DNA from: a virus
Lineage: Duplodnaviria > Heunggongvirae > Uroviricota > Caudoviricetes
Strand: one strand, 5' to 3'
DNA: 38,095 nucleotides
IMG/VR virus record: IMGVR_UViG_2526164613_000026
The notes under the pieces were generated by a model. That model saw only the letters and a list, made by a program, of their open reading frames with translations, had not been told where the DNA came from and made no database searches. Positions 1-26,626 of this stretch are shown one piece after another. The translations under genes and the position numbers were made by a program. Positions within the stretch are counted from its first letter, which is position 1. Each line of letters opens with the position of its first letter.

Positions 1-618
1 TGCATGATCCATAATTGTGTGTGATTGCCCTGAAAGTAGGGTACGTCCGACATCAATCCCGCGCCCATCATCCCAGATACGAATGAAATCACCGCGTGCG
101 TCAGGTAATGCCAGCGCCGGAAACACTTTCGCCAGCACAGGGTAATCAGTGGCAGAGAATTTCGCGCCGTTGAACTTCAAAAACACCATACCGGACCAGC
201 TATCGATTACGGTATCTGGCATTGCAGCGGACGGCCAGAAGAACGGAACGCCAATAGCTGGAGCTCCTTCTCCCAAACCAAGGTTTTCGAGAGCCGTTTT
301 CACCGTGCCATCCGATTTGATATCACCAAACGGATTCTTGCGGCTCAGGTATTCAACAGCAAACCCCGATCCCAGCAATTCAACAAAACCGGGCAGATCA
401 CCATTATCAAGCACATCCCGTTGCGTTTTATCACTTACAAACTGGGCCAGAGCTGCAGCAATAAAGCTGGCCTGCCGAATAACCTTATTGACTTGCGCAC
501 TGGAGGCTTTCCCTGCTGTAAATCCGGATAAAAGCGCGGGCAACGCTTCCCATTCCTCCTGCGATATAACATTGGCATTTCGATCCGTTGCAAACGCTTT
601 AAAGTCATTTTTCGTCAT
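1..618 (-). CDS. Tail fibre protein, N-terminal part (gene continues beyond window start)
   Basis: Minus-strand frame open from ATG at 618 to position 1 with no stop (hand-translated). ATGA overlap with upstream gene stop. Residues about 150-206 match the phage tail-collar motif ([42 protein letters not shown]). Confidence 0.7.
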
Positions 619-1298
619 CAGAGTAATACTCCCCATGCTCCTACATCAAAACCACTGATGAATTCGTTATCCATATCAAAACCAAAAAATTTTGAGCCTT
701 CCGATGGGGTTTCCACCGAAGGTGTTTCAATGCCACCCGCCCATACCCCGGCGGCTTTTACTGTGAGATACCCCTGTTTAATTGCCGCAATTAACTCACG
801 CGATACATCTGAAATATCAGTATCAGGAAAGACCCAGACCGATATCGTCATGTCCTGGTTATCGACTATCTGCATTCGCAGCCCGGATCCTGCTGTTGCC
901 GCGTCAAGAATTGCCGGAAGCGAATCATTCCGTCCGTCCCAGTTATTAATCGCAATCTTCGCTTTAAGAATGACACGATAAGTTTCATCGCTGAGATACA
1001 TGTATCCTGAATCAGGATCGTATGGTCCCTGCCATACCCCCTGATCATATCCAAGCCCGTCGGTATCCCAGCTGAAATAGACACCTGAGATAGGCTGGCT
1101 GACAACACGGCTACGTCCGATCCACAATCCAAGAATGTCAAGTTGCACACCAACCGCAGAGTCAATATCAAATGCAGTAATCAGCCCTCTGGTGGCAGCC
1201 GCAACATCAATAAGTGGCCGGGTCATCAGATCAACATGCGCAAGAAATTTAGGTTTGGTGGCGTGGTAGTTCGTGATTAGTTCGGTGTATTTGCTCAT
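618..1298 (-). CDS. Baseplate/tail fibre-associated protein (position of Mu gp48 / P2 gpI)
   Basis: 226 aa ORF, ATG verified at 1298, translationally coupled to J-like gene upstream and fibre gene downstream. Family assignment by synteny only. Confidence 0.55.
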
Positions 1299-2494
1299 GA
1301 CTCCACCGTTATAACGATATTTTCCGGGGTACAGGACACAGATTCGTTGTATCTGATATCAATGTTTGATGACGACAAAGCCCCCGGGGATTTCCCAATC
1401 GTCAGTTCCTGAATATCGTAATAGCGTGCATTCCCGCCACTCACCACGCCAAGATTCGCCGGTGAGTAAATGCGACTTAAAAGGACCGAATCACCAATCA
1501 TCAGACTATTGATATAGTCGGAAATAGCCTGCTGGATCTGCTGCCCTATCTGTGAGGTATAACCCGTAAAAACTTGTAATTTGATCCGGGCATAAACAGG
1601 TACATCACTGGAACGCGAGAACTTGATTACATGGGGATTGCCGTATTTATCCGGAATCGTAACGGATGTTGTACCGTGAGTGGCTGTCCCCTGACCTTTA
1701 TTCCCTCTGATAGCCTGAGCAATATCCGTCACATCACCGCCATCCACAATCACAGCAACAGAGTGTGGCGGTAACCCGTTACCGTCCTCCGAACCAGTAT
1801 CATTTTCATAGAGTTTGTGGCGGGTTACACCGGTAACATTAGAAACAGCACCATCCAGTGCTTCAAATGGGGTTATTGATGGCAACGCAACACTTTGCGA
1901 CTGACGGATACGTAACTCCGCATCAGTTTCTGCCGGAGAGCCAACAGTAGCCGCAGCAGGATTAGTTACCGAAACCCAGCCACGGGTTGGCGTATTAATT
2001 TCAGTGATTGTTCCAGCCAGCGCCGCCACTGCACCACTGACGGAACATGTTGCGGTCGCCATCACTGTACCATCCACGCCGACCACCACTGAAGCAGGCA
2101 AACGCCATATCACATTATTACTGTCTTTCACGCTGCCATTAATGATGGTTGTTCCGGCAGTTCCTGTAAGAAGCAAATCAACCGTAGAGTTCGTCGCGCC
2201 TTTACGTGAAATACCATTTATTTTCACGTTACTGGTCAGTGCAGCCCCATAGCCGGTTGCCGGTGAAAAACAGTTGTAGACAGTTATCGCCGTATTATTG
2301 GCATCATGAATCGCCAGTGCCATCAGAGCCACCATCTGGCCGTCTTTGCTGTCCGGTTCGAGGTAGGCATCACTGCCATAAATCTGCTGAAAATAGCTAA
2401 TCAGGGTGCTGAGTATCGTCTGATAATCAGGCGCACTGATCCCCTCTGCGGTTACCTTTGCAGATAAACCGAGAGAATCAAGGTTCAGAGCCAT
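1295..2494 (-). CDS. Baseplate J-like protein
   Basis: 399 aa, ATG at 2494, overlaps neighbours. Size and position after W-like and V-like genes fit baseplate J / Mu gp47. Confidence 0.75.
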   Translation of the reverse strand: MALNLDSLGLSAKVTAEGISAPDYQTILSTLISYFQQIYGSDAYLEPDSKDGQMVALMALAIHDANNTAITVYNCFSPATGYGAALTSNVKINGISRKGATNSTVDLLLTGTAGTTIINGSVKDSNNVIWRLPASVVVGVDGTVMATATCSVSGAVAALAGTITEINTPTRGWVSVTNPAAATVGSPAETDAELRIRQSQSVALPSITPFEALDGAVSNVTGVTRHKLYENDTGSEDGNGLPPHSVAVIVDGGDVTDIAQAIRGNKGQGTATHGTTSVTIPDKYGNPHVIKFSRSSDVPVYARIKLQVFTGYTSQIGQQIQQAISDYINSLMIGDSVLLSRIYSPANLGVVSGGNARYYDIQELTIGKSPGALSSSNIDIRYNESVSCTPENIVITVES

Positions 2495-2847
2495 TACGCC
2501 TCCGATGTAACAGTCGTTATTCCATAAAGAGTGTCGATTTCAGCGGAAAACATGACACGTCGGGTCGTGGTATCCACCGTCGTATTGAAAGAGAGGATTG
2601 ATTTAACGCCCCGAGTTTCGAGGATGCGCTTACGGATCGCCAGGTTGTAGGTTTCCGGCTTCTGCTTACCGAGCACAGACCGGATCCACGGAGTCCCTTC
2701 GGTGGTATCGAGAAACCATTGCCCATACCACAATTCGAATCGCGTTTTTACCGCCTGCGCCACGGCCTCCGGTGAGTTAATCAGCCAGGTGTCATCACCG
2801 CTGCCAAAGGTGTAATCGCCATCGGCGTCTTCACGTCTGTATCGCAT
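2494..2847 (-). CDS. Baseplate protein, W/gp25-like (Mu gp46-like)
   Basis: 117 aa, ATG at 2847, ATGA overlap with V-like stop. Size and position typical. Confidence 0.6.
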   Translation of the reverse strand: MRYRREDADGDYTFGSGDDTWLINSPEAVAQAVKTRFELWYGQWFLDTTEGTPWIRSVLGKQKPETYNLAIRKRILETRGVKSILSFNTTVDTTTRRVMFSAEIDTLYGITTVTSEA

Positions 2848-3599
2848 CAGTTTACCCCGTCGGTACTGCTTCCACCGCGCTGAACACCGCCATGAGAGTG
2901 CGTATCATCGATTGGCTTGCCGTTAGCCTTCACGCTCCCCAAGAACTCAACAGCACCAGTGATTTTTGAAGCCACACCAGAAACCACAGACCCCACCATG
3001 CCCCCCATCCAGGTTAACAGGCCATGAATGGTTACTTTCTCAGAAAAATCAGCCAGAGGGGCAACCACATCAAGACCACCCGGAGCGACAATTTTAATTT
3101 TCCTGGTATCAGGATTAAGCTCAAAATAGGTGCTGCCGTCGTCACTACGCAACTGTGTGGCACTGGTATTAATGCCGCTAATCTTCCTCGCCTGCGACTG
3201 GGGACCGACAATACAAAACGCATCCGATAAATCATGCATTCTGTCATCAACAGGCTCCTGTATCCCGCCGTTCTGCCACCAGAAATCAATACAACGATCG
3301 GCAAAAACGACAAGACACTCATCCCCGGCTTTTACCGGAAAAGTCAACGTACAGCCTCCGCCGCGCGGGAATACCACTGGCACATCCACCAGCAATGGGT
3401 AATTTTTGGTAATGCGGTTACCGTAATTATCCTTTTCAACCGAACGGATAGCTGGCTGCACAACCGCCGTCACCGCGTCAGGATCGAATGACTGAATAAT
3501 GCCAGGCAAGGCGACGCGGATCTGGTTCTTTGTTGTTTCCCGCTCGGACTTGAATGTTTCGGCAAGGTCACCGCTACGAGTCTGGTCTGATATGGCCAT
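2847..3599 (-). CDS. Baseplate assembly protein V / central spike
   Basis: ORF track starts at TTG 3632 inside a terminator hairpin. First ATG is at 3599 with AGGAG 8 nt upstream (250 aa). C-terminal HSHGGVQRGGSSTDG is typical of gpV / Mu gp45 spikes. Confidence 0.8.
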   Translation of the reverse strand: MAISDQTRSGDLAETFKSERETTKNQIRVALPGIIQSFDPDAVTAVVQPAIRSVEKDNYGNRITKNYPLLVDVPVVFPRGGGCTLTFPVKAGDECLVVFADRCIDFWWQNGGIQEPVDDRMHDLSDAFCIVGPQSQARKISGINTSATQLRSDDGSTYFELNPDTRKIKIVAPGGLDVVAPLADFSEKVTIHGLLTWMGGMVGSVVSGVASKITGAVEFLGSVKANGKPIDDTHSHGGVQRGGSSTDGVN

Positions 3600-3613
3600 T
3601 TGATAAACTCCTG

Positions 3614-3640
3614 AAAACAAAAAACCCGCCAAGTGGCGGG
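3614..3640 (-). terminator. Intrinsic terminator ending the accessory cassette, 24 nt upstream of the V-like start
   Basis: Minus-strand RNA CCCGCC-ACUU-GGCGGG (perfect 6-bp stem) followed by UUUUUUGUUUU. Confidence 0.7.
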
Positions 3641-3661
3641 TCTACAGGAACAACTCTAAGT

Positions 3662-3832
3662 TTATTTTTTCTGTTTAAAATTGTCCAACTCAGGTTCTTT
3701 AACGCTTTCTGTCATGTAATCCAATCCACCAAAAGGTACTTCAAGCATTATACTGCTTTCATAATCAGCCATGGATTGCTCTGCTTGCGTTGGCTTGCTT
3801 TGCTGTGAGTTGTCATTATTTGATGTTGTCAT
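3662..3832 (-). CDS. Small hydrophilic protein, 56 aa (third gene of tail-module cassette)
   Basis: Hand-translated (MTTSNNDNSQQSKPTQAEQSMADYESSIMLEVPFGGLDYMTESVKEPELDNFKQKK). Below ORF-track size cutoff. ATG 6 nt after upstream stop, AAGG 9 nt upstream. Confidence 0.35.
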   Translation of the reverse strand: MTTSNNDNSQQSKPTQAEQSMADYESSIMLEVPFGGLDYMTESVKEPELDNFKQKK

Positions 3833-3835
3833 CAA

Positions 3836-4390
3836 CTATGCCTTATTTATCAAAAGAAAAGTAACCGATAATATGAAAAAACCGAAAGATAACGCAATTC
3901 CTTCAAAAAGATAACGAGCGTAAACTGCCTTTTCTTTATGAAGACTTTCGATCAATTCAACAGCTTTACCATACTGAAACATATGGTATCTAAGCGTTTT
4001 AATTTTATCACCGTAAAATAAAAAATCATGCTCTTCTTTTCGCTTATGAATAGGCATTTTTGGTATATCTTTCAGTCCCCAAGTACGCCATAGGAAAAAA
4101 AAGCACATAACAATACAAACAAAGCACAGATATGCACAAAGTATAGATAATGTTAAAAACCAATTACTCTTTAGCCCACTTTTGAAATCAACAGTCCCAA
4201 ATACAGCCAGTAGAGCAGAGGTTTCTACAGCTAAAATAGCAAGAAGGTAGTTAACTTTGTCCTCAAGACGACGATATGTTGATTTTGCTTCCTCATATCT
4301 ATCTTTATAATATGACGAAATAAAATCAGCGCCTATAGTCTCAATTGCCTTTTGTTCTTCTGTTGTATCTATTGACGAACGCTTGCTCAT
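3836..4390 (-). CDS. Accessory inner-membrane protein, 184 aa, three predicted TM helices, unknown function
   Basis: ATG verified at 4390, 7 nt after the secreted-protein stop. AT-rich by eye. Hydrophobic stretches LLAILAVETSALLAVFGTV, WFLTLSILCAYLCFVCIVMCFFFLW, ALSFGFFILSVTFLLI. Sits between baseplate genes. Confidence 0.6.
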   Translation of the reverse strand: MSKRSSIDTTEEQKAIETIGADFISSYYKDRYEEAKSTYRRLEDKVNYLLAILAVETSALLAVFGTVDFKSGLKSNWFLTLSILCAYLCFVCIVMCFFFLWRTWGLKDIPKMPIHKRKEEHDFLFYGDKIKTLRYHMFQYGKAVELIESLHKEKAVYARYLFEGIALSFGFFILSVTFLLINKA

Positions 4391-4397
4391 TTCTCAA

Positions 4398-4745
4398 TCA
4401 ACCAACAACTTTCTTACACGGGAAAGAGCCAATAATTTTCGGAGCATCCATGCTGTTCTGCAACAACTGGACGTTCAGGAAACGCGTTTTAGTGCCAGGT
4501 CGATGGATATACTCGAACCCATAATTGTTGCCATCTTTGGCAGGCATCAGGTCCATTTTGATCTGCATGCCTGTACCGTCTTTACCCAACATTTTTACTT
4601 TTTGGGACGTTACTGTTTCGCCATTGATTTTAAATAATGAATCAGGGATCGCATCCATACGAAAGTTGCCGCATTGCATCGTTATGGTGTTTGCACTTAC
4701 ACCAACAGACACTAATGCCAGCAATGAAAATATCCATCGTTTCAT
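4398..4745 (-). CDS. Accessory secreted/periplasmic protein, 115 aa precursor, unknown function
   Basis: ORF-track N-terminal extension overlaps the hub gene. Internal ATG at 4745 has GAGAGGA upstream and gives MKRWIFSLLALVSVGVSA followed by NT (signal peptide with AxA-like cleavage site, no lipobox Cys). Two Cys in mature part. Confidence 0.6.
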   Translation of the reverse strand: MKRWIFSLLALVSVGVSANTITMQCGNFRMDAIPDSLFKINGETVTSQKVKMLGKDGTGMQIKMDLMPAKDGNNYGFEYIHRPGTKTRFLNVQLLQNSMDAPKIIGSFPCKKVVG

Positions 4746-4747
4746 TT

Positions 4748-5812
4748 CTATAATCCTCTCTGAAAAGCAGTGCTGGATGGGATATCCTGCGCACCGCGCG
4801 CTTCGCACATCATATCCATGTACCACGCCTGGCCCCTTGTGTCGCCAGTGTACATAATCCCGCGCACAATATAAACGCCATCCGTTGCGATGCTGGCAGG
4901 CTGCGATGTGGTGCCGCTTAGCGTGATATTTCCATCCGTGTTCTGGTCGGTGATCTGACCACCAGCCATCGCGATATCGTTGTTCGACAACGCGGTACGA
5001 TACACTGAAGCCTGATCCAGTTGAATGAGCCCGTTAACCCGGATGTTCGGATTAATAAGCGCGCGGACATTTACGCCGTTGCCGATGGTCTGCTGCGGCA
5101 TGCCAATAAGCCCGGTAGCGCTGTTGAGCACAATCGCTTTGTGAACATATTCATTATTCTCCACCATCTGGCGTTGACCGTCCACGAATTGCCATGTTGC
5201 GCCACATTGACCGGCTACGTTATCCATAAGATGCCGCGTCATGCCAAAGAGTACCCGCCCCCGGGGGAATACAGTAGCAGGCATTTCAGGCGTCAGGCCT
5301 TCGGTCGCGCCTTTGGCTTCGAAGTCTTTCATCAGCGCACGGTTCACATCAGCGACCGTGTAACCGGCAGCCAGCGTCTGTGAGGTTATACTGGTGGCAA
5401 AAGCCAGATCAGTATCTGCTGCCTGAATCAGGACGTAGGAATCAACCGGACTGTCTTTTCCTGTGACCGAGTAGCGAATTTCACCGCTGAAAATCAGTCC
5501 GTAGTTGCGACCATCACTCTGGCCCACGTCCGCCGCGTCAACTTCCCGCACTGTCCCGACGTCGCTTGCCGACACCTCCGGCGCGATACCGTCGTAACCC
5601 GCAATCAGACGCACTTTCGAAAACTCCTGCCCGGTAATTCGGTTCACAGTATCTGCCGAAAGGTTATAAATTTTGATAGTCCCTACCCGGGACGCGCTGC
5701 TGATGTTGAACCAGTCGATCGTAAAGGTGACTTTGAAATCACTTAGCTCAATTCCCTGACCGTTCCCGTCCACAAGCTGCAGCTCGAAATGTCTCATCCA
5801 GTTCTGTGACAT
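4748..5812 (-). CDS. Baseplate hub-like tail protein (position of Mu gp44 / P2 gpD)
   Basis: 354 aa, ATG verified at 5812. Assignment by size and synteny, downstream of the tape measure and upstream of the V-like spike. Confidence 0.55.
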   Translation of the reverse strand: MSQNWMRHFELQLVDGNGQGIELSDFKVTFTIDWFNISSASRVGTIKIYNLSADTVNRITGQEFSKVRLIAGYDGIAPEVSASDVGTVREVDAADVGQSDGRNYGLIFSGEIRYSVTGKDSPVDSYVLIQAADTDLAFATSITSQTLAAGYTVADVNRALMKDFEAKGATEGLTPEMPATVFPRGRVLFGMTRHLMDNVAGQCGATWQFVDGQRQMVENNEYVHKAIVLNSATGLIGMPQQTIGNGVNVRALINPNIRVNGLIQLDQASVYRTALSNNDIAMAGGQITDQNTDGNITLSGTTSQPASIATDGVYIVRGIMYTGDTRGQAWYMDMMCEARGAQDIPSSTAFQRGL

Positions 5813-5814
5813 GC

Positions 5815-6117
5815 TTATTCCGTTGATACCAGTAAATGACTGCGCCCGCCCAAGTCTGTTTTCGTGGGATAATCCTGTGTGCTGTCATCGCAGACCACCA
5901 ACAGCTTAAAACCAAGTCCCATACAGGCGTACTGCGCCAGCAGATCAGCGCCAGTGACGAGAGGAATACCGGAGATTACCGGCTCCCCTCTGTCATTCTG
6001 CAGGTCCATAATCCAGTAAAGATCGCGCCATATGATGCTAATTCGCCAGGTGACACCACCCAGGACGATGCTGAACTGCTGGTTGTCCGCTGTCAGCGGA
6101 ATTTCCTGAATTGTCAT
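5815..6117 (-). CDS. Tail/baseplate protein, 100 aa
   Basis: ATG at 6117 with ATGA overlap to upstream gene. Conserved position after tape measure. Confidence 0.5.
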   Translation of the reverse strand: MTIQEIPLTADNQQFSIVLGGVTWRISIIWRDLYWIMDLQNDRGEPVISGIPLVTGADLLAQYACMGLGFKLLVVCDDSTQDYPTKTDLGGRSHLLVSTE

Positions 6118-6704
6118 TAGCCGCCCCCCAGTAATGACGCCACGTTACCCGTGATGCTTTTCAGCAGTGAAGTATCTGGAGGCTTTGTGGTTTTGTTGCC
6201 GCTATTCTGTACCGCCGACGTGCTGGCCCCTTCCTTCATGTTGGTTTTATCCGCGACGGTAATCTGCTGTGTCCGGGAGATAAGGACCTCCCTCAGGGTG
6301 AGGACGGCGGACAGGACGTTTTCGGTTGTCTTGTCCGTCGTCACTTCCAGCGCCCGGATCAACATGTTGCTGTACAGCCGTTTACCGGTTACCACATCGA
6401 AGGGGATACGACTTTCCTGCAGATCCAGTAGCTCCTGATACGTCTGCTGAGGACTCAGGCCGAGCAGGCTGGTAGCCGTCAGGTTACTGGCAAAATCCAG
6501 CAATGCGCCGCCACCGGCGAAACCAACCTCCATCACCACTTCTGACGGTTTTTTATAGGCATGATCAGCGACAGCGGCCCCGACCTCTACCGGATGCTCT
6601 GTTATTTCAAGCATATCTGTATGCTTCTCTGAAATAACAACACTGGGAACAATCATTCCTATTTTTCTGCTCTGCTGATGAAAAAGTGTAGAGAGAATAT
6701 CCAC
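6117..6704 (-). CDS. Tail protein following tape measure, 195 aa (GTG start) or shorter from ATG 6656
   Basis: GTG at 6704 is preceded by GGTGAGGGTGGG. Alternative ATG at 6656. Function by position only. Confidence 0.5.
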   Translation of the reverse strand: MDILSTLFHQQSRKIGMIVPSVVISEKHTDMLEITEHPVEVGAAVADHAYKKPSEVVMEVGFAGGGALLDFASNLTATSLLGLSPQQTYQELLDLQESRIPFDVVTGKRLYSNMLIRALEVTTDKTTENVLSAVLTLREVLISRTQQITVADKTNMKEGASTSAVQNSGNKTTKPPDTSLLKSITGNVASLLGGG

Positions 6705-8692
6705 TAACCCACCCTCACCTGATTACTTCGCATGACCTGAGCATTTGCAGACTGTTGCCGACGTGCAACCTCATTACCGACAGCGTGCGGATCTCCGCCA
6801 CCGTAAATGTGGTAAGTATTTTGCTGGTTAACCTCTGTCACTTTGCCACTAATTCCTGCCACGGCAGCCTTATTAATCAGCTCTCGGGAATAGATATTTC
6901 TTCCATTTTCATGCTGGATAATACTGCTCATCAATGCTGACATGGTTTGCGGATCGCTCATATTCAGGGCAGCCCGGGGATCCACTCCCAGTCGTTGCGA
7001 TACAGCCCTGATATACGCAGTTGTGTTGTTATTATCAGACGCAGGTGCCCAGGTAGAGATAATTTTCTCCACACTGTTTATTCCCCGTCCGGCGTACAGC
7101 ATTAACTGACGAGCAAGAGCCCGTAATCCATCAAAGGCAGTTTCAAATCTGGCAAATCGCCCGCCCGGGCGTTCAAGAGAAGCCCCTGCCTGACCAGCAA
7201 AATTAAGGTTTCCCGGATTGTTATTCCGTTCTCCTCGTTTCGTAGCCTGTGCATGTTGTTCCGGCTCATCATCACCAAACCAGCTGCGTACCGTCCGGCC
7301 CACGCTACGGGGATCGAATCCCCAGTGCTCTTTAATCCAGTCGGCAGTACTGTTAGCGCTGTCTGTAACCATCGGCATCGCTGACGGATTTGCGCTGCCC
7401 TGATTAAGTATCTGTTTGCCGATGCTGACGGCATCAGCCCAGCGGCCATCTTTGATAGCGTTGAGCAGGTCGGCGATCATGTTCAGCATTTTGCTGAATT
7501 CGCCCATCTGGTCGATGAAGTTGCTGAAATCCCACTTCAGGGACCATGATTTGGGGTCAATATTGAGTAGTTTCGCCAGCGCTTTCGCCAGGTCGTTAAC
7601 GGTCGTTTTAAGGTCACGAACCATCTTCAGCGCGGCATCGACCTCCGGTTTCCACTTGCCCCAGTCAATCAGGCTGTCGCCGCCTTCCTTCCAGGTCTGA
7701 TAGTCCTCCCACAGGAGGGCAATACCCGCCGCCAGCGCGGTAATGAGGCCAATCGGCGACATCCAGAACGTACTGTTCAGAATGCGCAGCGCAATCGTCA
7801 GTGCGCCAAACAGCGAGATCAACTCCCGCGTTTGCTTATCCAGCGATTGCCACCAGGTGATGAGGCTTGATGTTCCTTCAATCAGTCTGAAGAACAGCCG
7901 CCCGATAATATCCCCGAGCGCCAGAATGCCTTTTATGGCTTTCGTCAGGGTCTGCTCGATACGAGGGAAGTTGTCCAGGATATGGCGGCGCAGGGTGTCC
8001 AGCGAACCCGCAAGCCCACCCGCAAGATTAGAGCCGATTTTGTCACGGGCCATGCCTGCCATCGCGCCAAACTCACGCAGGGAGGTCATAAATTTGTTGG
8101 AGCTTCTGGCCGCCTCGTCAGCATTGAAGCCGATAGCTTTCGCCATTGCGCTGTACTGCCCGGAGAAGCCACCCACACCCCGGCGCATCGCCATAAGGGT
8201 ATTTTCGTCAATGCCCAGCATCTGCGCATACTGGTTAGCCCGGTAATACGGCATGCCGCTGAGCTTCTGGCCTACACCTGTAAAAATAGCGGCCATGTCA
8301 CGCATGTTACCGCTGGCATCCCGTGTCTGTACCCCCAGGCGATTCAGAAATCCCTCTGCCCCGGGATTGTTACGAATAAACCGGGAGAGGCTTTCCAGAG
8401 AAGATCGCGCAGCGTCCACGCTGCCGCCAACCTGCGAAACCGCATAGCCAATAGACTGAATTCCCTGGACTGTCGCGCCAGTGCGCTGTGACGCCCAGTA
8501 AAGATTATCCAGGCCGGAGGCAATCTTAGCCGTAAAGGCCACCACGGACAGTGCAGCTCCTTCAACGGCCAACCCCATTTTGATGACATTTGCAGTTGTC
8601 CCGGCGAGGACAGAACCGAATTTTTTTGCTCCAGCATCATCCACACTGAAGCCAAGCGAGACGAGGAAATCTTTAATAGTTTCAGCGTTCAT
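6704..8692 (-). CDS. Tail tape measure protein
   Basis: About 660 aa. ORF track starts at TTG 8713; first ATG is 8692 with GAGAGGA upstream. Ala/Gly-rich repeats and hydrophobic segment, directly downstream of chaperone. Confidence 0.8.
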   Translation of the reverse strand: MNAETIKDFLVSLGFSVDDAGAKKFGSVLAGTTANVIKMGLAVEGAALSVVAFTAKIASGLDNLYWASQRTGATVQGIQSIGYAVSQVGGSVDAARSSLESLSRFIRNNPGAEGFLNRLGVQTRDASGNMRDMAAIFTGVGQKLSGMPYYRANQYAQMLGIDENTLMAMRRGVGGFSGQYSAMAKAIGFNADEAARSSNKFMTSLREFGAMAGMARDKIGSNLAGGLAGSLDTLRRHILDNFPRIEQTLTKAIKGILALGDIIGRLFFRLIEGTSSLITWWQSLDKQTRELISLFGALTIALRILNSTFWMSPIGLITALAAGIALLWEDYQTWKEGGDSLIDWGKWKPEVDAALKMVRDLKTTVNDLAKALAKLLNIDPKSWSLKWDFSNFIDQMGEFSKMLNMIADLLNAIKDGRWADAVSIGKQILNQGSANPSAMPMVTDSANSTADWIKEHWGFDPRSVGRTVRSWFGDDEPEQHAQATKRGERNNNPGNLNFAGQAGASLERPGGRFARFETAFDGLRALARQLMLYAGRGINSVEKIISTWAPASDNNNTTAYIRAVSQRLGVDPRAALNMSDPQTMSALMSSIIQHENGRNIYSRELINKAAVAGISGKVTEVNQQNTYHIYGGGDPHAVGNEVARRQQSANAQVMRSNQVRVG

Positions 8693-8921
8693 TATCCTCT
8701 CTCCATTTCTCAATGCGCCGCTGGTTATCCGCTTTTACCGCCAGATGGTCATTCAAGAGAGCAATATCGTACAAATCGACAGAGCCATCTTTAAGTGCTG
8801 TATAAGGAATTAACCCGGCGTCAACCGGATTGAGAAGGTAGGACAGCCCGTCCGGCAGGCTGTTAAACGTCAGCCCTGTTGCAGGCTCTGCGTCGTACTG
8901 GTAAGGGATGTAGGCAAAAAA
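8682..8921 (-). CDS. Minus-1 frameshift extension of tail assembly chaperone (G-T-like fusion product)
   Basis: Slippery run GGG-AAA-TTTTTT-G in the chaperone 0 frame (A_AAT_TTT / T_TTT_TTG, plus 8915..8924). The -1 frame is open for 80 codons with no start codon of its own and ends at TGA 8684..8682, just inside the tape-measure start. Confidence 0.5.
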   Translation of the reverse strand, partial: FFAYIPYQYDAEPATGLTFNSLPDGLSYLLNPVDAGLIPYTALKDGSVDLYDIALLNDHLAVKADNQRRIEKWREDNER

Positions 8922-9322
8922 TTTCCCAGCGAATTGGCGACCACCCGCGCCACCAGATGAAGCATGACCAGCAGGTCAATATCATCAAACATCAGTTCGC
9001 CCTGGGTAAATACCGGCACCCATCCGTCCATATGACGCCGCGATACCACCGCAAGACAGGGATGAATAATCGCATCGGTGTCATCTTCGGTCAGGGAAGA
9101 CAGTTCCTCAGCGATACGCGGGAGCATGGTTTCAAACACCGGTTTTAACTGCTCGAATTTCACGGTGTCGATTTTACCATCAGCAGGCAAACGGGAGCGA
9201 ATGCTCCCGAAATCTGACATCATTCCCGCCAGCACCGGCAGAAGTTTGCGGGTCACTTTCAGCTGGTCAAAAACGCTGAGTTTTGCCACGCGATATTTCA
9301 CGCCTTTAATTTCGAATTCCAT
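8870..9322 (-). CDS. Tail assembly chaperone
   Basis: 150 aa, ATG verified at 9322, between tube and tape measure genes. Carries the slippery site 15 codons before its stop. Confidence 0.7.
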   Translation of the reverse strand: MEFEIKGVKYRVAKLSVFDQLKVTRKLLPVLAGMMSDFGSIRSRLPADGKIDTVKFEQLKPVFETMLPRIAEELSSLTEDDTDAIIHPCLAVVSRRHMDGWVPVFTQGELMFDDIDLLVMLHLVARVVANSLGNFLPTSLTSTTQSLQQG

Positions 9323-9325
9323 GCA

Positions 9326-9766
9326 TTAAAACTCCCCGAGAACCTGGTCAATCTTGCCGCAGTCAAACACCCACGGCATCGTATTACCGGTTTTAGCGTT
9401 GGCGTTATCCGGTTGTTTCTGGAACGCAACACTGCGTGCCGTGATGATGTCGCCGCTGACCTTGTTGCGGATCACGATAACGTTATTCCCCCATGTGGCA
9501 GAAGACTGGCTCTGTGCGTTATACGCCAGCGACAATTTTTTATTTGTCGGTGATGTCTTCAGAAGGTTAACGGTAATTGTCCCGCTTTTATCTGCATGGA
9601 GACTGTGCATCACTTCGCCATCAGAACCGATGGTCATGGTGTTTTTAGGACCGCCCATCGCAACCACAATCCCCTCTTCAGAACTTGCCGAACCGTACCC
9701 GAGGTCAATCGAACCGGTCGGCCCGGTCAGCGTCGCAGTGACATCCATAAAAGAATAGGTAGACAT
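9326..9766 (-). CDS. Tail tube protein
   Basis: 146 aa, ATG at 9766, directly downstream of sheath gene. Confidence 0.7.
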   Translation of the reverse strand: MSTYSFMDVTATLTGPTGSIDLGYGSASSEEGIVVAMGGPKNTMTIGSDGEVMHSLHADKSGTITVNLLKTSPTNKKLSLAYNAQSQSSATWGNNVIVIRNKVSGDIITARSVAFQKQPDNANAKTGNTMPWVFDCGKIDQVLGEF

Positions 9767-9776
9767 TCACTTCCCC

Positions 9777-10922
9777 TTAGCGAACAACGTTAATCTGTAC
9801 GTCAGCGTAATGAACCGCGCCTGCAAGTTTTATTGCAGCCTGAATCACCGGAGCCTTACGGGCTTCACGTTCTGATTGTGCCTGTTCATCCAGCGGCTGG
9901 GCGTATACGTAATAACCTTTGGGCAGCGTGTCACCTGATGACAACTGACCAAGGTCGCCCCCGTTCCATACGCCCGGAGCAATCAGTCCATTCTGAACGG
10001 CCTGATCCAGTGATTTTTCAACATTTGATAACAGTCGGGTAATACCGGCTTCAGTCTGGGGAACTTTCGTGGTGCTGGTATAAAGCAGGTTATAAAGGTT
10101 GGTCTGCACATAATTCTGTAACCAGTCCAGGCCGTGGCGTTCATCAAAGAAATCGCCGTTAGCCATCACTCCCTGCTGGAGGATAGCCGTATCATTCTGG
10201 TAGTACACGAACACATTGCAGTTTTTTGCATCAAGTGCCGATGCCTGGCTGACTGTCAGTGTTTCATACCCGACACCCGGCTCCTGCTTAAACTTGAGCG
10301 TAATCGCGGTATTACTGCCATTGAAATTAACCGTGAATGCCCGGCCAAATGCAGATAACGCAGCGTATTTATTACCCGATGAATACTGAATAAAACTGCG
10401 TGAATATCCGGCGGTTTTCAGTTTTGATGCCAAATCATCGCTGGATGCAGTCTGCAGGCATTTCTCATCGCTTGTCGTAATCGCCAGAATACGGCTTACA
10501 GAAGAGGATTCGATCGCCGCAGCCACTTTCAGCCAGTCTGCATCCGGAATATCTTCATCGTCTGCAATCCCCAGCCCATACCATGAAGTATAATCAAGCA
10601 TGGCATTCACAGCCTGCTCCAGCGTCTCATGCGTGGCCTGTTCGCTGTCTCCCTTCGTTTTCACCCAACGACCAACAAAAACCTCCTGAGGTTTCGGTGA
10701 TTGTGAGAAAAACACCTGCGCAGCCTTATATTCTGGTGATTCCACGCCAAAATCTTTTCCAATATCTTCCGCGGCAGAATAACGGCGAATGCGCTCACTT
10801 ACCGGAATGATTGTGGACGGGCCGAGAATGAGTAATGCACCAAAATTTCGCCCTGATGCTGCACGCGGCGACATGATCACATCAACATTAACAACGTTTG
10901 ATACAGGCAAGCCCTGTGCCAT
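9777..10922 (-). CDS. Tail sheath protein (short sheath family of contractile tails)
   Basis: 381 aa, ATG at 10922. Position before tube/chaperone/tape measure; family recalled from memory as DUF3383-type sheath. Confidence 0.7.
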
Positions 10923-10925
10923 AGC

Positions 10926-11489
10926 TTAATCTCCGAAAAAGATGACTGGTGCTTCCACCAGCGATTTAATACCGTACTCGCGCACAACCTTCCGGCGCAG
11001 ACGCACCGTCATATCGTAGCGGCGGACCCATTGCTGATTAATAAGTTCAGGGAAGGGAGTCAGACCTGTGTAATCGCCAAGAGACAGCCCCAGCGCATTC
11101 AGTGCTGCGTTGTTCTGCGGTACAGATATACCGTCACGAAACCGGGACGCATACACCATCCCCGCCGGACCATAAAACGAAGCCATACACTCAATCGTTT
11201 CATGCCGCCAGAGCTGAGAGCCATCATCGGTCTGTCTGGTGAATGCCGGACTGTCATCACCTGACCATCCGATAACCCCAAACGCACACCAGTTCGTTTC
11301 AGCCGGTAGCAGTGGCGGTTGCTCTTTCTGCCAGCGCGGACGAACCATCCCGGCAGACAGACCGGAAACGTTACGCATCCACTGGCTTAACAGCCTGTCG
11401 AGCGCTTCGTCATAATCCGGATCGCCACTGGTTGGTATCAGCCATCCGCGCTCTGTGCTGGTGTTATTGCTCAACCGGAATTCCCCCAT
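10926..11489 (-). CDS. Virion protein (neck / tail completion region), unknown function
   Basis: ORF track gives 202 aa from ATG 11534, which overlaps the upstream gene by 71 nt. ATG at 11489 gives 187 aa. Start uncertain. Confidence 0.5.
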   Translation of the reverse strand: MGEFRLSNNTSTERGWLIPTSGDPDYDEALDRLLSQWMRNVSGLSAGMVRPRWQKEQPPLLPAETNWCAFGVIGWSGDDSPAFTRQTDDGSQLWRHETIECMASFYGPAGMVYASRFRDGISVPQNNAALNALGLSLGDYTGLTPFPELINQQWVRRYDMTVRLRRKVVREYGIKSLVEAPVIFFGD

Positions 11490-11853
11490 CAAACGGCAGC
11501 AACTCACAATGCGCCTGAACGAATCCGGCACCATACGCTGTATACGGGTCGACGAAAGTCACACGATAATCACGGCCCTGATACGTCACGATATCGGCAT
11601 CACGGCCAGTCTGTCCCTGCGTCAGTCGCTCAGTCGTCACAATCAGAATTGCACCACTGATTACCTGCCCGGCCTGCATACGACGGTTTTCCAGAGAGCG
11701 ATCAACAGTTACGACTCCGGCAAACTGCTTTTTAACTTCGCTGTCGCTGCCGATCCCGTCCTCATCCACCGTTTGCACACGGCGTGTTACCCACAAATTG
11801 AAGTCGCAAAAATCGGGGTCAAAAAGCACATCTGTTACATCAAGAGTCGGCAT
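11464..11853 (-). CDS. Virion protein (head-tail joining region), 129 aa
   Basis: ATG at 11853. Coupled gene series between capsid and sheath genes. Confidence 0.5.
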   Translation of the reverse strand: MPTLDVTDVLFDPDFCDFNLWVTRRVQTVDEDGIGSDSEVKKQFAGVVTVDRSLENRRMQAGQVISGAILIVTTERLTQGQTGRDADIVTYQGRDYRVTFVDPYTAYGAGFVQAHCELLPFDGGIPVEQ

Positions 11854-12394
11854 TTTTATCCCTCACAACATGGGTAATCGCTCTGCGATATTGCCCGGTG
11901 TCAATTAATGGTTTCGCCAGTTCGGTTCCCGGGGATTCGCCAGCAGCACGCCGGGCAAGTTCCAGTGTTGCCCCCTTGCGCCCCCGACGAGCCCGGGCTT
12001 CAACAGTACTGTCAGCAAGCGGCGTAAAGCCGGTAATGGTCATGTAACGCCTGACGCCATTAGCGGCCAGTGTTCCGGCACGGTTGAGTGCGCTTTCTGC
12101 TCCCGCAGCATTACCATCAAGTGCAGCCTGCGCCGCGGCTTTGAGCTGCGGCACCGTCTGCTCTTCTGCCGATTTAACGCCGGGGACCAGGTGAGGTCGT
12201 GGCGGGATGTTCTGCTCTGGTGAGCCGTATTCGTTGAGGTAACCGATGCCCGCATTACCAAACGGAACATCATCCCGCTCGCTGTCTTCCGAAGGGATGC
12301 CGACCAGAACATCTTTTTTGGTTAACGACCTGAGCGCATCCAGAATGGCCTTAGCGTTATCCACCCTCGTTGTTACACCGCTTTTGAAACTCAT
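11840..12394 (-). CDS. Virion protein (head-tail connector region), 184 aa
   Basis: ATG at 12394 with ATGA overlap to upstream gene. Confidence 0.5.
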
Positions 12395-12798
12395 AGCTGG
12401 CGACCACCTGCACCGAACATCGTGATCAACTGATAAAATTCAGCGCCATATCGGGTGTTATTCCAGAAACCTGCATCAGGATTCAGCGTCGCGCTGGTGT
12501 CATAACTGACGCTTACCTTATCCACGGACTTTGAGGACTGAACACCATTGGTTGAACCGCCCGGCCCGCCAGCCAGCATCGCCCGGATGTCTGCCGCCCA
12601 GAGCGTCATGTAGTGTGCAACGAACAATCCGGCAAAGTACGGAAACAACTTTTTGCTGGTGACGTTTTCGCTCAGCAGTTCATCGGCCAGATTCAGACGA
12701 AACTGGATTTGCGCTTCGGGATATTTGGCAGGGTCAGCAAACTGCGGGAAGTCGCGGCGAAAATCACTTACCGCTGGCAGACTTTGATTCTTTGGCAT
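12391..12798 (-). CDS. Head-tail adaptor-like protein, 135 aa
   Basis: ATG at 12798. Size and position downstream of major capsid gene. Confidence 0.5.
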
Positions 12799-12985
12799 TT
12801 TTTACCTCGTTACGCGCGTCTGTGGCTTTGCCAACGGATACTTCCGCGTGCGCACGAGTGAACCAGTGCGTGGCAACGTCTTCCTCCACAGCATGACGGC
12901 CTTTAACAAACTCGCTCCGCGAACCGTCGGGAAGCGTGAGCACAAACGGGGTATGTACGTGTATTACTGCATTATTTTTTGCCAT
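12764..12985 (-). CDS. Small phage protein, 73 aa
   Basis: ATG at 12985 with AAGGA upstream. Overlaps downstream gene by 35 nt. Confidence 0.4.
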
Positions 12986-13026
12986 CGGGTCATCCTTAAT
13001 GGCCCCGCCAGGGGGCCATATGGCTG

Positions 13027-13968
13027 TTAAATGCCATCAACGTACGAAATGGTTTCTTTGTACACTGGCTCGACTGCACCCAGCTTGCCGTAGTAAGTGA
13101 CGATCTGATACAGACCGCGATACTGCACCGGCACGCTCTGAAGCGGAACCAGCGGGTAGCGGACGTATTTTTTATCGTTGGTGTACGCAACCATGCGATC
13201 CTTATTCCCCACACCACGGCCTTTCAGCCATTTAACCGCGCGGATATTCAGCGGAACACCGTTCTGGTGATAGCTGATGGTGTTGGTCTGAAGGTACGTC
13301 AACAGGGACTGGTTACCCGCAGATGAAACGATGATGCTGGACAACAGAGCAAACTGCTCAGGCGGGATCAGCAAATCACGCGGAACCACAGAGTAACCGG
13401 AAGCGGCCCACGCATCAGACAGCACCTGGTTAATGCTTGCGCGGATTTCGTCCGATGTTGAGGTTGCCCACGTTTTGGCAGCGTTGTTGACAGGCACGCC
13501 GTCCAGGGTAACAAGGCCTTTCAGGTTTAATGCGGAATCGCCAACATATACCTGTTCATCGTTATCCATCTGCCATTTCAGTTGCATACCGTCATACTTC
13601 TGCGTATCAATCGGGCGGCCGACCTGCTGAGCAGCCTGCAATTCTATGACCGTCCAGCCAAGTTCCATCCCCCACAGGTTCAGCGGGTTACCGGATTTGC
13701 CGATATCCACGTTCACGCCAGCAATAGCGGTTGAGTCTTTGCCTACCCAGTTTTTTCCATTCGGATTTGCACCAGTACCCGCAGCGGCGAAGCTGGTATT
13801 CGTCCAGCTGGAAATGTCATCTGCGATGGAGACGTCTTCACGCAGTTGAATATCGCGGCTCCAGGTGTACCCCACCAGTGGCAGGTTCAGCGTCTGGTCG
13901 AGTCGTTCCAGCTCCCCGATGAGAAAGGCACCAGAGCTGTCAACGGTTGCCTGATCAAAAGTAATCAT
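13027..13968 (-). CDS. Major capsid protein
   Basis: 313 aa, ATG at 13968. Follows scaffold-like and decoration-like genes. Family recalled as the DUF2184-type coat that co-occurs with DUF2213 and Mu F-like proteins. Confidence 0.75.
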   Translation of the reverse strand: MITFDQATVDSSGAFLIGELERLDQTLNLPLVGYTWSRDIQLREDVSIADDISSWTNTSFAAAGTGANPNGKNWVGKDSTAIAGVNVDIGKSGNPLNLWGMELGWTVIELQAAQQVGRPIDTQKYDGMQLKWQMDNDEQVYVGDSALNLKGLVTLDGVPVNNAAKTWATSTSDEIRASINQVLSDAWAASGYSVVPRDLLIPPEQFALLSSIIVSSAGNQSLLTYLQTNTISYHQNGVPLNIRAVKWLKGRGVGNKDRMVAYTNDKKYVRYPLVPLQSVPVQYRGLYQIVTYYGKLGAVEPVYKETISYVDGI

Positions 13969-13979
13969 TCGTCTGTTCC

Positions 13980-14486
13980 TTAAATCTTCCAGGAAATTTC
14001 TGCATTGCCGTCAGCATCACCGGCACCTGTGAATTCAGCGTTGGTCAGCACCACGTTTTTGCCACTGACTGACGTGGCCATGAATCCACCCAGCGGCACT
14101 TTGATGGATTCATCAGTGGAGACGACAACGTATACCGGGTCGCCTTTTTTGATGGTGCTGGCATCAAAATCAGAACCGAGATTAACGGTCACGTAGCCAC
14201 GCTTCATGGCGTCGCCCGGGAAGTTCTTGCCACTCCCCACCTGGCGAACCATGTCCGGCTGCGACGTGGTCGGATAAGGGCGCACGTAGATCCCCTTCAC
14301 CTTGTCTGCGGTATCACCATCTGCCAGCGGCACGAAAAAACCGTCATCATCGTATTTACCAGCCAGCCCATAGGCAGCGAAGGCGTTATCGGATTTAAGG
14401 GCCACCGGTTCGACGGTTAAGTCCTGCGGGCGAGAGACAGCCCCGGCAATGCCAACAGGCATCCGATACAGAAATACATTATTCAT
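13980..14486 (-). CDS. Head structural protein (decoration/cement-like), 168 aa
   Basis: ATG at 14486. Between scaffold-like gene and capsid gene. Confidence 0.5.
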   Translation of the reverse strand: MNNVFLYRMPVGIAGAVSRPQDLTVEPVALKSDNAFAAYGLAGKYDDDGFFVPLADGDTADKVKGIYVRPYPTTSQPDMVRQVGSGKNFPGDAMKRGYVTVNLGSDFDASTIKKGDPVYVVVSTDESIKVPLGGFMATSVSGKNVVLTNAEFTGAGDADGNAEISWKI

Positions 14487-14489
14487 TTT

Positions 14490-15710
14490 TTACCCTTTAC
14501 GGTTTGCCCAGAATTCAGCGTTTTGTTTGTTCAGGGAAGCGATACTGGTCATGCCCATGTTTGGGCGCTGTGCATCGCCGGTGGTGGCGCGGGTGTTTCG
14601 CCCTTTGGCAATCTCTAACACGGCATTAAACGCCATGTCGACCGATTGTTTCGGTAATTTGCGGATATCCGCATCACCGACTATCTGGCGAACCAGCGTT
14701 TTGTCAGCAGAAGCCAGAACCTCGCGTTTGAACGCGGTCGGTTTCATCTTACGGCTCAGATCGATACCCGGAACGATAACTTCGGCACGCCAGGCTGAGT
14801 CACCAGTAATCGTGGTTTCCTCTTCATCGTCCTCGCCGTCACCGGTCGGATTATCGTCAGGCTTATTGTCGTTATCGCCCGTCGCATTTCCTTCCAGCTT
14901 AGCCAGCAGGGCTTTCAGTAATGTTTTGAGGTCATCATCACTGTCGCCGGTTGGACCTCCGCCCATCTCTGGTGCTTTGTCCGGTAGCGGTTGCTGCGGG
15001 GACAGATTGATGTTGAGATTAACGCCCTGCGGCAAATCCCCCTCATCTCCTGTAACCGATGCGGGAGCCGACTCCACCAGTTCGTTCATGGTGTCAGCGT
15101 CACCCGTTTTGATGGCCGTGCGCATGCGGGTCCACCAGCTTTTCTTTTGATTTGCCATTGTGTCTCTGTCTCCAATTGCACAACGATTTCCGGCTCTGCC
15201 TTTAGGGACAAGAGCCACATGGTTTCCGGTAATATCGACCTGCCCGGCTTTACCTGGCTCGGTCTGCTCATACTCCGCGTCATAGCCGCACGACACTTCG
15301 CGCAGGCCATCTTCGATAAGCTGAATGGCGTTTTCGTCTTTGACGATAAGGTCAGCCAGCATCAAATCAGACTGCTCACCCGTCCCGCGCCGGACATTCT
15401 GGAGGTGCCCGACAGCAAGCTCTTTCCAGTTCTCGGGATTTACCAGCCGCACATTCCCGTTTTCATCTTCAGGATGCAGAATCGTGATGCTCATCCCTTC
15501 GAATGAGGCAAGCGTGGCCGGATGGAATACCTGCACAGGAGAACGCGTGACGACTATTTCACCGAACTTATCGGGTTTCAGTTTTGGCAGGTCATCAGCA
15601 CCATAGAGCTGCTTACCTGTTCGTCCTATCGGCACGTCTCTGCACAGCAACGAGCCGTCAGCCAGCTGATAGCGGGTTTCCCCCAGCCGGGTATTGAAAA
15701 AATATTTCAT
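14490..15710 (-). CDS. Prohead scaffold-like protein with acidic low-complexity linker
   Basis: 406 aa, ATG at 15710. Asp/Glu/Gly-rich central stretch (GDSDDDLK, NPTGDGEDDEEETT). Family recalled as DUF2213-like. Confidence 0.6.
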   Translation of the reverse strand: MKYFFNTRLGETRYQLADGSLLCRDVPIGRTGKQLYGADDLPKLKPDKFGEIVVTRSPVQVFHPATLASFEGMSITILHPEDENGNVRLVNPENWKELAVGHLQNVRRGTGEQSDLMLADLIVKDENAIQLIEDGLREVSCGYDAEYEQTEPGKAGQVDITGNHVALVPKGRAGNRCAIGDRDTMANQKKSWWTRMRTAIKTGDADTMNELVESAPASVTGDEGDLPQGVNLNINLSPQQPLPDKAPEMGGGPTGDSDDDLKTLLKALLAKLEGNATGDNDNKPDDNPTGDGEDDEEETTITGDSAWRAEVIVPGIDLSRKMKPTAFKREVLASADKTLVRQIVGDADIRKLPKQSVDMAFNAVLEIAKGRNTRATTGDAQRPNMGMTSIASLNKQNAEFWANRKG

Positions 15711-15724
15711 GTGTTACCTGCGAT

Positions 15725-19438: not shown

Positions 19439-19440
19439 AC

Positions 19441-21404: not shown

Positions 21405-21503
21405 ACTTCCCACCTCCGCCATTACGGGGTGTTGTTGAAAGGCGGGCCCTGCGTATACGCCCGTAGGATTGGGTTATGAGCCGTCCTTCGGTGGGCCCTG
21501 AAT

Positions 21504-25118: not shown

Positions 25119-25121
25119 GGG

Positions 25122-26078: not shown

Positions 26079-26097
26079 TATTCCCACCGTAAATATC

Positions 26098-26595: not shown

Positions 26596-26626
26596 ATCAT
26601 CCATGTAATTGCTGTGTGTAGTCTTT

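Follow-up and report, generated by a model that had tools for sequence, protein, structure and literature searches.

The DNA analysed here, IMG/VR record IMGVR_UViG_2526164613_000026, is a stretch of 38,095 nucleotides (nt), referred to below as the window, which is a SEN34 (Brunovirus)-like temperate myophage prophage with lambda-type, Q-antiterminated late control. Within its baseplate block, between the baseplate hub gene and the membrane-puncturing spike gene, lie three small genes on the minus strand, here named A, B and C (Table 1). We report that this hub-spike interval is a real and well-delimited accessory slot of a known kind, that A and the pair B-C assort independently, and that the terminator closing the slot is an element of the phage backbone and is not carried by the cassette. 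The balance tips slightly towards a conflict function (defence, exclusion or addiction) for B-C; the more complete reading, in which B is a membrane effector and C its regulator, serving phage defence or exclusion from a slot insulated by the backbone, appears to us evenly poised. A preliminary description, made from the letters alone, had proposed a single three-gene moron cassette with its own terminator, an idea that was right in spirit and wrong in its unit and in its terminator.

The three genes are present on the minus strand with the lengths given earlier, A having a signal peptide and two cysteines, B three hydrophobic segments and C the character of a hydrophilic peptide. They are closely packed, with 2 nt between the hub stop codon and A, 7 nt between A and B and 3 nt between B and C. 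All three open reading frames (ORFs) are taken as real genes because A has 386 homologue clusters across Enterobacterales, and because B and C are kept as a pair, with their ORFs retained, down to 39% identity in B. The guanine-plus-cytosine (GC) fraction is intermediate in A (0.425) and low in B (0.337) and C (0.368), compared with 0.539 in the hub gene, 0.515 in the spike gene and 0.514 in the late operon. The interval had been called AT-rich, and for B-C (0.34-0.37, against 0.52-0.54 in the flanks) this is so; B-C differ from their neighbours in composition, as expected of a moron, and are compositionally foreign.

Variable insertion between hub and spike, as the preliminary description supposed, was found both in complete genomes and in viral records. 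Flank matches occur in 307 of 5426 complete Escherichia coli genomes (~6%), and 21 of the 307 hold the A-B-C content of the window at the DNA level. This count is a lower bound, since diverged B-C alleles beyond the reach of megablast exist in E. coli and are sometimes unannotated. An example is ECONIH2 (L016, NZ_CP014667.1, 562..1268; numbers of this form denote compared loci), where a gap of ~770 nt, empty in RefSeq and running from the A homologue to the spike gene, holds an intact diverged B of 176 amino acids (aa) and a C of 59 aa, so annotation-based counts underestimate the B-C module.

In IMG/VR, the end of the hub gene could be placed in 101 loci among the listed matches to the pattern of the slot-closing hairpin described below; the ORFs of these loci were clustered, and all counts out of 101 derive from them. 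Their hub-to-terminator distance ranges from 355 to 1882 nt and they show at least 12 distinct slot contents. The first gene after the hub belongs to the A family in 87 of the 101 loci, and is replaced by a 241-aa lipoprotein gene in 7 and by a gene for an exported protein of 153-158 aa in 5. The statement that tails of this type have no genes at this place therefore fails for this lineage, in which A or an alternative exported protein is nearly always present. Behind the first gene, 3 loci have no cargo at all (A only) and about 40 have a pair of 243-276 and 123-142 aa, while the remainder include a DUF4282 membrane protein (14), B-C (9), a 192-aa protein with a YafO-family toxin (7), an antisense gene of 121 aa (6), a 245-aa exported OB-fold-like protein (5), a SEN34-type protein of 140 aa (3) and several singletons. 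B-C thus behaves as a moron in being present or absent between conserved genes, in 21/307 of the E. coli genomes and 9/101 of the listed IMG/VR loci. Hub identity to the window is 82-99% in most E. coli-type loci and 59-63% in the most distant ones, irrespective of the cargo.

Pfam searches with the alternative cargos returned YafO_toxin (PF13957, E 3.5e-17), DUF4282 and DUF2335, and none of the cargos tested matches a defence model in PADLOC 2.0.0. HEPN assignments suggested for two of them by Rx4H-like motifs seen by eye received no support from Pfam and are not claimed. The commonest cargo pair (243-276 and 123-142 aa; e.g. L110, L073 and Yersinia phage YP3, L004 2221..3021) has no Pfam match, and its one scanned member, the 266-aa protein of YP3, has no PADLOC match; the pair is a further uncharacterised two-gene candidate. 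A 121-aa cargo protein encoded directly after a normal A (L021 567..932; L149) has a signal peptide and cysteines near the mature start and the C-terminus, a layout like that of A, so that the slot can hold two small exported proteins in tandem.

The independence of A and B-C is seen directly when protein identities to the window are compared along the loci. In L033, L035 and L037 the tape-measure C-terminus (98-100%), the Dit-like protein (99-100%), the hub (96-97%) and the spike (96-97%) are nearly those of the window, with slot proteins at 66-67% for A, 52% for B and 45% for C. L031 combines a hub at 88% and an A at 66% with a B and a C that are both 98% identical, and L039 combines a hub at 83% and an A at 94% with a B at 50% and a C at 43%. 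A Serratia locus (L011) has B-C behind a 224-aa lipoprotein in place of A, and in Klebsiella aerogenes (L008) the pair follows a 296-aa lipoprotein-like protein with a C-terminal A-type domain. Since A and B-C re-assort freely and B-C also stands behind other exported proteins, the three genes are not the one coupled cassette that had been described; B-C is the exchangeable unit.

The hairpin that closes the slot is a strong intrinsic terminator, as was noted before, with a stem (3643..3622) of 9 pairs, 6 of them G-C, a loop ACTT and a T-run reaching 3614. Its RNA folds at -21.3 kcal/mol (z = -3.4), with none of 200 shuffles as good, and it is the top-scoring terminator on the minus strand within window positions 1..20000. 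The T-run abuts the Shine-Dalgarno sequence CAGGAG (3613..3608) of the spike gene, whose ATG is at 3599; the end of the stem lies 22 nt from this ATG, close to the 24 nt stated originally. The ownership of the hairpin was assessed from the 75 nt that precede the spike start, using loci found without a hairpin query (by B protein homology or flank megablast). The same ACCCGC(C)-loop-(G)GCGGG stem with T6-7 and the spike Shine-Dalgarno sequence was present in 20 of 21 distinct upstream sequences, behind at least 8 different upstream genes, in Escherichia, Salmonella phage SEN34, Klebsiella aerogenes, Serratia and Enterobacterales 8AC, the sole exception being Yersinia phage YP3. The stem is kept while the loop varies (ACTT, ACCC, ACCA, GGAT, TTCG, TTAG, CGCCGA), and the hairpin is retained even where the N-terminal 120 residues of the spike are only 56-63% identical. 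In the IMG/VR scan for the hairpin pattern, a spike gene follows within 60 nt in 119 of the 120 matches listed. The hairpin precedes the spike gene behind every cargo and behind A alone, which contradicts a terminator belonging to the cassette and makes it a phage backbone element.

The preliminary description also held that late transcription must pass this terminator, and the phage has the means to do so. The lysis, head and tail genes are preceded by a Q antiterminator gene, and a tR'-like terminator separates this gene from the holin gene; holin, endolysin, terminase, head and tail genes then follow in this order on one strand, the arrangement of a lambda-type late operon. Q-modified polymerase ignores terminators in lambda. 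The Q system accounts for the presence of a strong terminator within the baseplate genes, and by analogy we infer that Q-modified polymerase passes the slot terminator in lytic growth. The hairpin would halt Q-unmodified transcription arising in or upstream of the slot, keeping the spike and baseplate genes silent in the lysogen, and in lytic growth the Q-modified enzyme would read through it.

B, the main cargo gene, encodes a protein with hydrophobic segments at ~48-66, 77-103 and 160-181; an AlphaFold2 model (mean predicted local distance difference test score, pLDDT, 80.5) has long helices at 21-66, 77-104 and 129-183. The gene is rare: clustering at 90% identity leaves 12 clusters in 5.8 billion sequences, and a pattern scan and tblastn found no relative in the GTDB species-representative genomes. 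Invariant juxtamembrane residues (Y27, R31, Y32, E34, Y39, R41-L-E-D-K45, N47) are common to 11 homologues, as are E56 inside the first hydrophobic helix and a P110-x-M-P113 turn. An exhaustive profile search of 1.84 billion representatives yielded 78 full-length relatives at 15-25% identity.

That A, B and C match no characterised family, as originally stated, was borne out by Pfam, NCBIfam and PADLOC, which gave nothing usable apart from weak PycTM/2TM matches of B; nor did Pfam, PHROG and NCBIfam scans of the three proteins return SieB, Imm, HK97 gp15-like or Cor/Llp lipoprotein families. B matches the PADLOC PycTM model PDLC02365 at E 2.6e-4 (B 31-140 on model positions 8-109 of 165), a weak match for a hydrophobic protein, and the PADLOC model of the 2TM effector of the cyclic oligonucleotide-based antiphage signalling system (CBASS) at E 7e-3. 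Of the 78 remote relatives 73 were scanned; three PycTM models were matched by 21, 14 and 11 relatives, with a best E of 1.1e-8. A few match 2TM, CARF_TM or RT-SLATT models, and one, P0142, is colinear over the whole of a PycTM model. These profile matches suggest that B is probably a distant relative of the PycTM/2TM superfamily of abortive-infection effectors. No cyclase or cGAS/DncV-like nucleotidyltransferase (CD-NTase) stands beside B or its relatives in the ~35 contexts read, and none is present in the window; on the absence of a cyclase from every neighbourhood read, membership of B in Pycsar is excluded. The Pfam family 8xMP (PF24838) appeared at E >= 0.019 in 6 of the 11 close relatives and in 2 of the 73 remote ones (best 1.8e-4) and was treated as noise; a literature search on this family gave nothing relevant. 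Foldseek of B against viral structures gave nothing at E <= 0.001, and a sequence profile search of the PDB gave nothing.

C directly follows B, in the same order, in every B-C locus examined. It has an isoelectric point of 4.3, a grand average of hydropathy of -1.1 and a charge of -5.5, with a TTG at 3835 as an alternative start, and its alleles share a YExxIMxxVPFGxLxxxTES block and a lysine-rich end. A comparable partner accompanies remote B relatives: among nine viewed in context, 7 are followed by a hydrophilic ORF of 34-70 aa on the same strand, -4 to +25 nt from the B-like gene, 1 has the tail fused and 1 differs. The partner measures 38 aa in a defence-island-like setting beside a UvrD-like helicase, DUF4760 and DUF5677 (L023), 34 aa on short metagenome contigs (L025/L026), 70 aa (uncalled) in the same hub-spike slot of another Enterobacterales phage (L041), 60 aa in the same slot in L079, 40 aa in an island with RelA_SpoT, pRha and SocA_Panacea genes (L042), 53 aa where the B-like gene leads the cargo of a Tn7-like element, next to tnsD (L044), and 61 aa in a prophage-like region (L170). 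The fused hydrophilic tail occurs in a non-mobile-looking neighbourhood (L045). About 12 of the 78 remote relatives carry a hydrophilic extension of 45-80 aa fused after the last hydrophobic helix, often with an internal Met where the separate ORF would begin. This fusion and fission pattern, with the conservation of position, indicates that B and C form a functional pair.

A short motif recurs in the partners (LQIVTESY, VEVCLESF, LGVSLESL, KVVTEGY, KPVTESD, LGVALESY, YQVSIESV, LRMSLESL, AIITESD), although its reading is partly post hoc. A hidden Markov model (HMM) of an 11-residue block, built from close C alleles only, was scored on 18 distant ORFs or tails and on shuffles; the summed score was -88 against -194 +/- 34 for the shuffles, and none of 500 shuffles reached -88. 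The block model was used because matches of a full-length C HMM to the distant partner ORFs were dominated by low complexity. A read-through fusion of B and C, suggested by the window, where C is in frame after a single TAG, was set aside as coincidental, other alleles having a +1 or +2 frame or an ATGA overlap.

The mechanism that we propose for B-C is conditional on these similarities. B would be a helical inner-membrane protein and, by its remote PycTM/2TM similarity, a membrane-acting effector; C would be a small acidic and probably disordered partner, whose ..[LI]x[VI]x[TL]ES[YFH].. motif may be the detachable equivalent of the fused C-terminal tail. B could oligomerise in the membrane and either collapse its integrity or block DNA entry, with C or the fused tail restraining or gating it. 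Infection by another phage might cause C to be lost, displaced or titrated, and the B so released would protect the lysogen population or exclude the invader; no cyclic-nucleotide cyclase would be involved. A benefit to the lysogen is suggested by the carriage of such pairs in prophage slots, in Tn7-like cargo and in islands with toxin-antitoxin-type genes, and by the precedents of HK97 gp15 and JBD26 Tab. Exclusion and toxin/immunity, among the functions guessed at originally, are plausible.

Only tentatively, and as a doubtful extension of this, we consider that B-C belongs to an undescribed, widespread two-part system of a PycTM-like pore or perturbing protein and a short gating peptide or tail, causing abortive infection or a block of DNA entry with no nucleotide signal. 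Its gate would be a ..LGV[AS][TL]ES[YHL].. strand and it would ride prophage hotspots, Tn7-like cargo and defence islands; the deeply conserved pre-spike hairpin would be a purpose-built insulator that allows prophage-expressed cargo in a baseplate operon.

Several results count against the effector-and-regulator reading. Sigma-70 promoters upstream of A, B and C are not above chance (4 against 5.6 expected; 10 against 12.8), although promoter consensus scans are a weak test, the intergenic room is 2, 7 and 3 nt and an embedded promoter would be compatible with the result. A, B and C may therefore be expressed only within the late transcript. Pfam places B in no family, SLATT or other, at E <= 0.1, and the 11 close and 73 remote relatives show only scattered weak matches with no consistent Pfam family; 8 of the 10 top remote relatives match no PADLOC model, and fold searches with B return only generic helical bundles. 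In the remote relative L169 a different gene stands downstream, and the partner motif is individually significant in 3 of the 18 distant cases. There is also a conflict of topology, in that the fused tails follow the last hydrophobic segment and are predicted to be periplasmic, provided that all three segments cross the membrane, and free C has no signal peptide.

A rival possibility is that B-C serves the lytic cycle of its own phage, as a lysis-timing or holin-modulating pair or in late-stage exclusion of superinfection or re-adsorption, made only from the Q-dependent transcript. In its favour, no intergenic room separates the genes from one another or from the hub gene, no promoter above chance was found, and the genes lie within the late operon downstream of the Q and tR' region; the combination of a small membrane protein and a small soluble one, in some cases joined into one product with an internal Met, is also reminiscent of dual-product lysis regulators. 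However, most related phages lack B-C, their slot being filled by an unrelated cargo or by none; remote relatives that keep the small partner are found among the cargo of Tn7-like elements and in islands outside phages; a lambda-family holin, an endolysin and one further lysis-region gene are already present in the phage; and a backbone terminator right after the slot makes most sense if the slot genes are transcribed without Q; we regard a lytic role as unlikely. A plain toxin-antitoxin (addiction) pair, stabilising the prophage or hitch-hiking with no anti-phage role, would account for the translationally coupled layout of two adjacent, co-oriented genes for a membrane protein and a small, acidic, probably labile partner, for the bona fide type II toxin YafO found elsewhere in the slot, and for the presence of such pairs in several kinds of mobile element. 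It is hard to square with the natural fusions of B-like proteins to the tail, which do not suit a freely degradable antitoxin, and B-C shows no similarity to a known toxin-antitoxin family in Pfam, NCBIfam or PADLOC, so that we give this explanation little weight, noting that the boundary between toxin-antitoxin and abortive-infection systems is blurred anyway.

Two further explanations fare worse. PycTM, 2TM and CARF_TM models are the sole likeness of B to characterised families, which might make it an orphan cyclic-nucleotide-gated effector of Pycsar or CBASS type, its signal supplied by a chromosomal cyclase or an invading element; yet that similarity is weak, Pfam places B in no family, no cyclase or CD-NTase was met in the ~35 contexts and the conserved neighbour is a C-type ORF, which renders a borrowed signal improbable. 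A single functional system made up of all three products, a periplasmic protein, its membrane partner and a peptide, would agree with their adjacency and tight packing, with all three being exported, membrane-bound or small, and with A standing upstream of B-C in most B-C loci. Against this, A is present in 87 and B-C in 9 of the 101 loci, their alleles combine freely, the Serratia and K. aerogenes pairs stand behind other proteins, and remote B relatives outside this phage lineage keep the small ORF with no A-like neighbour; a joint system is very improbable indeed. The pairing of B as effector with C as its regulator is the reading that we carry forward, with A treated separately.

A carries an N-terminal signal-peptide-like (Sec-type) sequence, MKRWIFSLLALVSVGVSA/N, and two cysteines, Cys25 and Cys110, with no lipobox. 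Its match to phrog_3443 is full-length (E 2.1e-51, residues 1-114 of 115), which together with its post-hub position in the 87 loci places it in that family; an identical protein, WP_000832849.1, is named 'STY1065/STY2022 family phage-derived protein' by the Prokaryotic Genome Annotation Pipeline (PGAP). Both cysteines and a C-terminal block, FLNVQLLQNSMDAP..GSFPC, are near-invariant in the family. A is a near-fixed, fast-diversifying exported protein, probably a small periplasmic beta-barrel closed by a disulfide, and, being exported, it is not a virion part assembled in the cytoplasm. We compared A with periplasmic peptidoglycan-hydrolase inhibitors and exclusion proteins (PliC/MliC, Brucella PhiA, T4 Spackle); there was no Pfam MliC match and no clear fold match with the inhibitory loop motifs, and a role as a surface or periplasmic exclusion factor or inhibitor is a guess. 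The idea of A as an allele-matched inhibitor of the muralytic C-terminal domain of its own tape measure, or of its spike, was rejected, A being 66-67% identical where those are 96-100%. No paper came up in literature searches for STY1065 or for the WP accessions of the three proteins. In Salmonella phage SEN34 the A homologue SEN34_20 (L046, NC_028699.1, ~2645..2990) is annotated as 77 aa. Since the open frame continues in the 5' direction and then encodes a complete A-family protein, signal sequence included, the start codon chosen in the annotation probably lies too far downstream.

E. coli O55:H7 DEC5B has a prophage between yfhL and yfhH to which positions 3400..5000 of the window, the stretch compared, are 100% identical. 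The tail and baseplate genes resemble those of Salmonella phage SEN34 (genus Brunovirus), of the Escherichia vB_EcoM-606R2 group of phages and of Yersinia phage YP3. No Rfam family was found on the whole window, and no tRNA or tmRNA. The coordinates of the slot, its flanks and the late-control genes are collected in Table 1.

Table 1. Positions in the window of the hub-spike slot, its flanking genes and the late-control region
Feature	Positions	Strand	Matches and remarks
Q antiterminator gene	22221..22643	-	PF06530 Phage_antitermQ, E 5e-42, full length; PGAP 'antiterminator Q family protein'
tR'-like intrinsic terminator	21509..21530	-	9-pair hairpin and T-run; between Q gene and holin gene
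Holin gene, lambda-family	21063..21422	-	PF05106, E 1e-27
Baseplate hub gene	4748..5812	-	left conserved flank; PHROG 196 baseplate hub, E 2e-88; weak PF22759 E217_GP41
Gene A, 115 aa	4398..4745	-	first gene of slot; STY1065/STY2022 family, PHROG 3443
Gene B, 184 aa, membrane protein	3836..4390	-	main cargo gene; PHROG 18554
Gene C, 56 aa, acidic and hydrophilic	3662..3832	-	partner of B; PHROG 18231
Intrinsic terminator	3614..3643	-	right border of slot; hairpin and T-run; abuts spike Shine-Dalgarno sequence
Membrane-puncturing spike gene (V-like)	2847..3599	-	right flank; PF18352, E 2e-44; PGAP annotation

The spike has, in addition, a weak Apex motif and a match to TIGR01644 phage_P2_V at E 5e-8, which is below the cut-off. 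The hub gene is split into two ORFs in the vB_EcoM-606R2 group (L003 3005..4069), and in L017 (E. coli 15.TR.026_OXA) RefSeq flags an internal stop; in the former group, reported as isolated phages, the split may stem from an error in sequencing or from recoding, or the hub may be defective. The tape measure of the window (6704..8713) has only a weak PhageMin_Tail match, and an SLT lytic-transglycosylase domain (PF01464) is present in the homologous tape measures of L005, L011 and L041. The C-terminal 200 residues of the tape measure are a separately exchanging module, with 38-56% identity in some phages where the middle part has 59-88%. Between the Q gene and the tR'-like terminator lies a 113-aa ORF (21848..22189) with no Pfam match. 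The early region (~23000..36000) encodes a replication and recombination set (VapE-domain protein, DNA polymerase, DUF2800/DUF2815, VRR-NUC and SNF2-related proteins), a LexA-family repressor, a YfbU-family protein and two hypothetical proteins, the genes of which may be a second accessory region.

Accessory slots of temperate phages are a main source of new anti-phage and lysogenic-conversion genes. The slot between hub and spike is at an unusual site, occurs also in Salmonella, Klebsiella, Serratia and other Enterobacterales, and offers a dozen or more small uncharacterised cargos. B-C, two genes in 730 bp, is an uncharacterised family of suggestive architecture and a candidate for a signal-independent relative of the Pycsar and CBASS membrane effectors, and its conserved peptide partner could reveal how such effectors stay shut. 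Through its fixed terminator, the slot lends itself to a simple test of how structural genes of a phage are insulated from cargo expressed in the prophage. Should B-C be a late lytic accessory or an inert passenger, this would be an ordinary moron slot.

Among known systems, PycTM acts by membrane disruption leading to abortive infection (PMC11224242). B and its relatives resemble PycTM and the CBASS 2TM proteins in size (~160-190 aa), in an N-terminal amphipathic helix followed by hydrophobic helices and in weak colinear PADLOC matches. Unlike Pycsar and CBASS effectors, B has no cyclase partner in the contexts read and is paired with a hydrophilic peptide of 34-70 aa, sometimes fused; with no Pfam match and a marginal E-value, B would be a putative member at most.

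Morons that lie within late operons and protect the lysogen, with HK97 gp15, a small inner-membrane protein, and Tab of Pseudomonas phage JBD26 as examples, are described in PMC10884400. As with these and with lambda bor and lom, the slot adds compositionally distinct genes between conserved virion genes, patchily distributed in relatives, and behind them stands a terminator to be passed by Q-type late transcription. The earlier label of classic moron architecture is not supported, since it calls for a promoter and none was found above chance; the foreign composition of B-C and the variable slot do agree with a moron, and the strong terminator behind C is here a fixed part of the backbone common to all cargos. 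A further difference is that the first gene, A, is fixed and the position behind it variable, and neither A nor B nor C resembles gp15, Tab, Bor or Lom in sequence.

The defence and accessory hotspots of temperate phages and satellites, those of P2 and P4 (Rousset et al. 2022, as cited in PMC10884400), belong to other phages than the SEN34/Brunovirus-like lineage in which the hub-spike slot lies inside the baseplate block, and the slot differs from them in that no alternative cargo tested matches a known defence model in PADLOC 2.0.0, with B giving the weak PycTM/2TM matches only. It shares with these hotspots a fixed site between conserved phage genes that is occupied by many mutually exclusive small systems, toxin-antitoxin genes among them.

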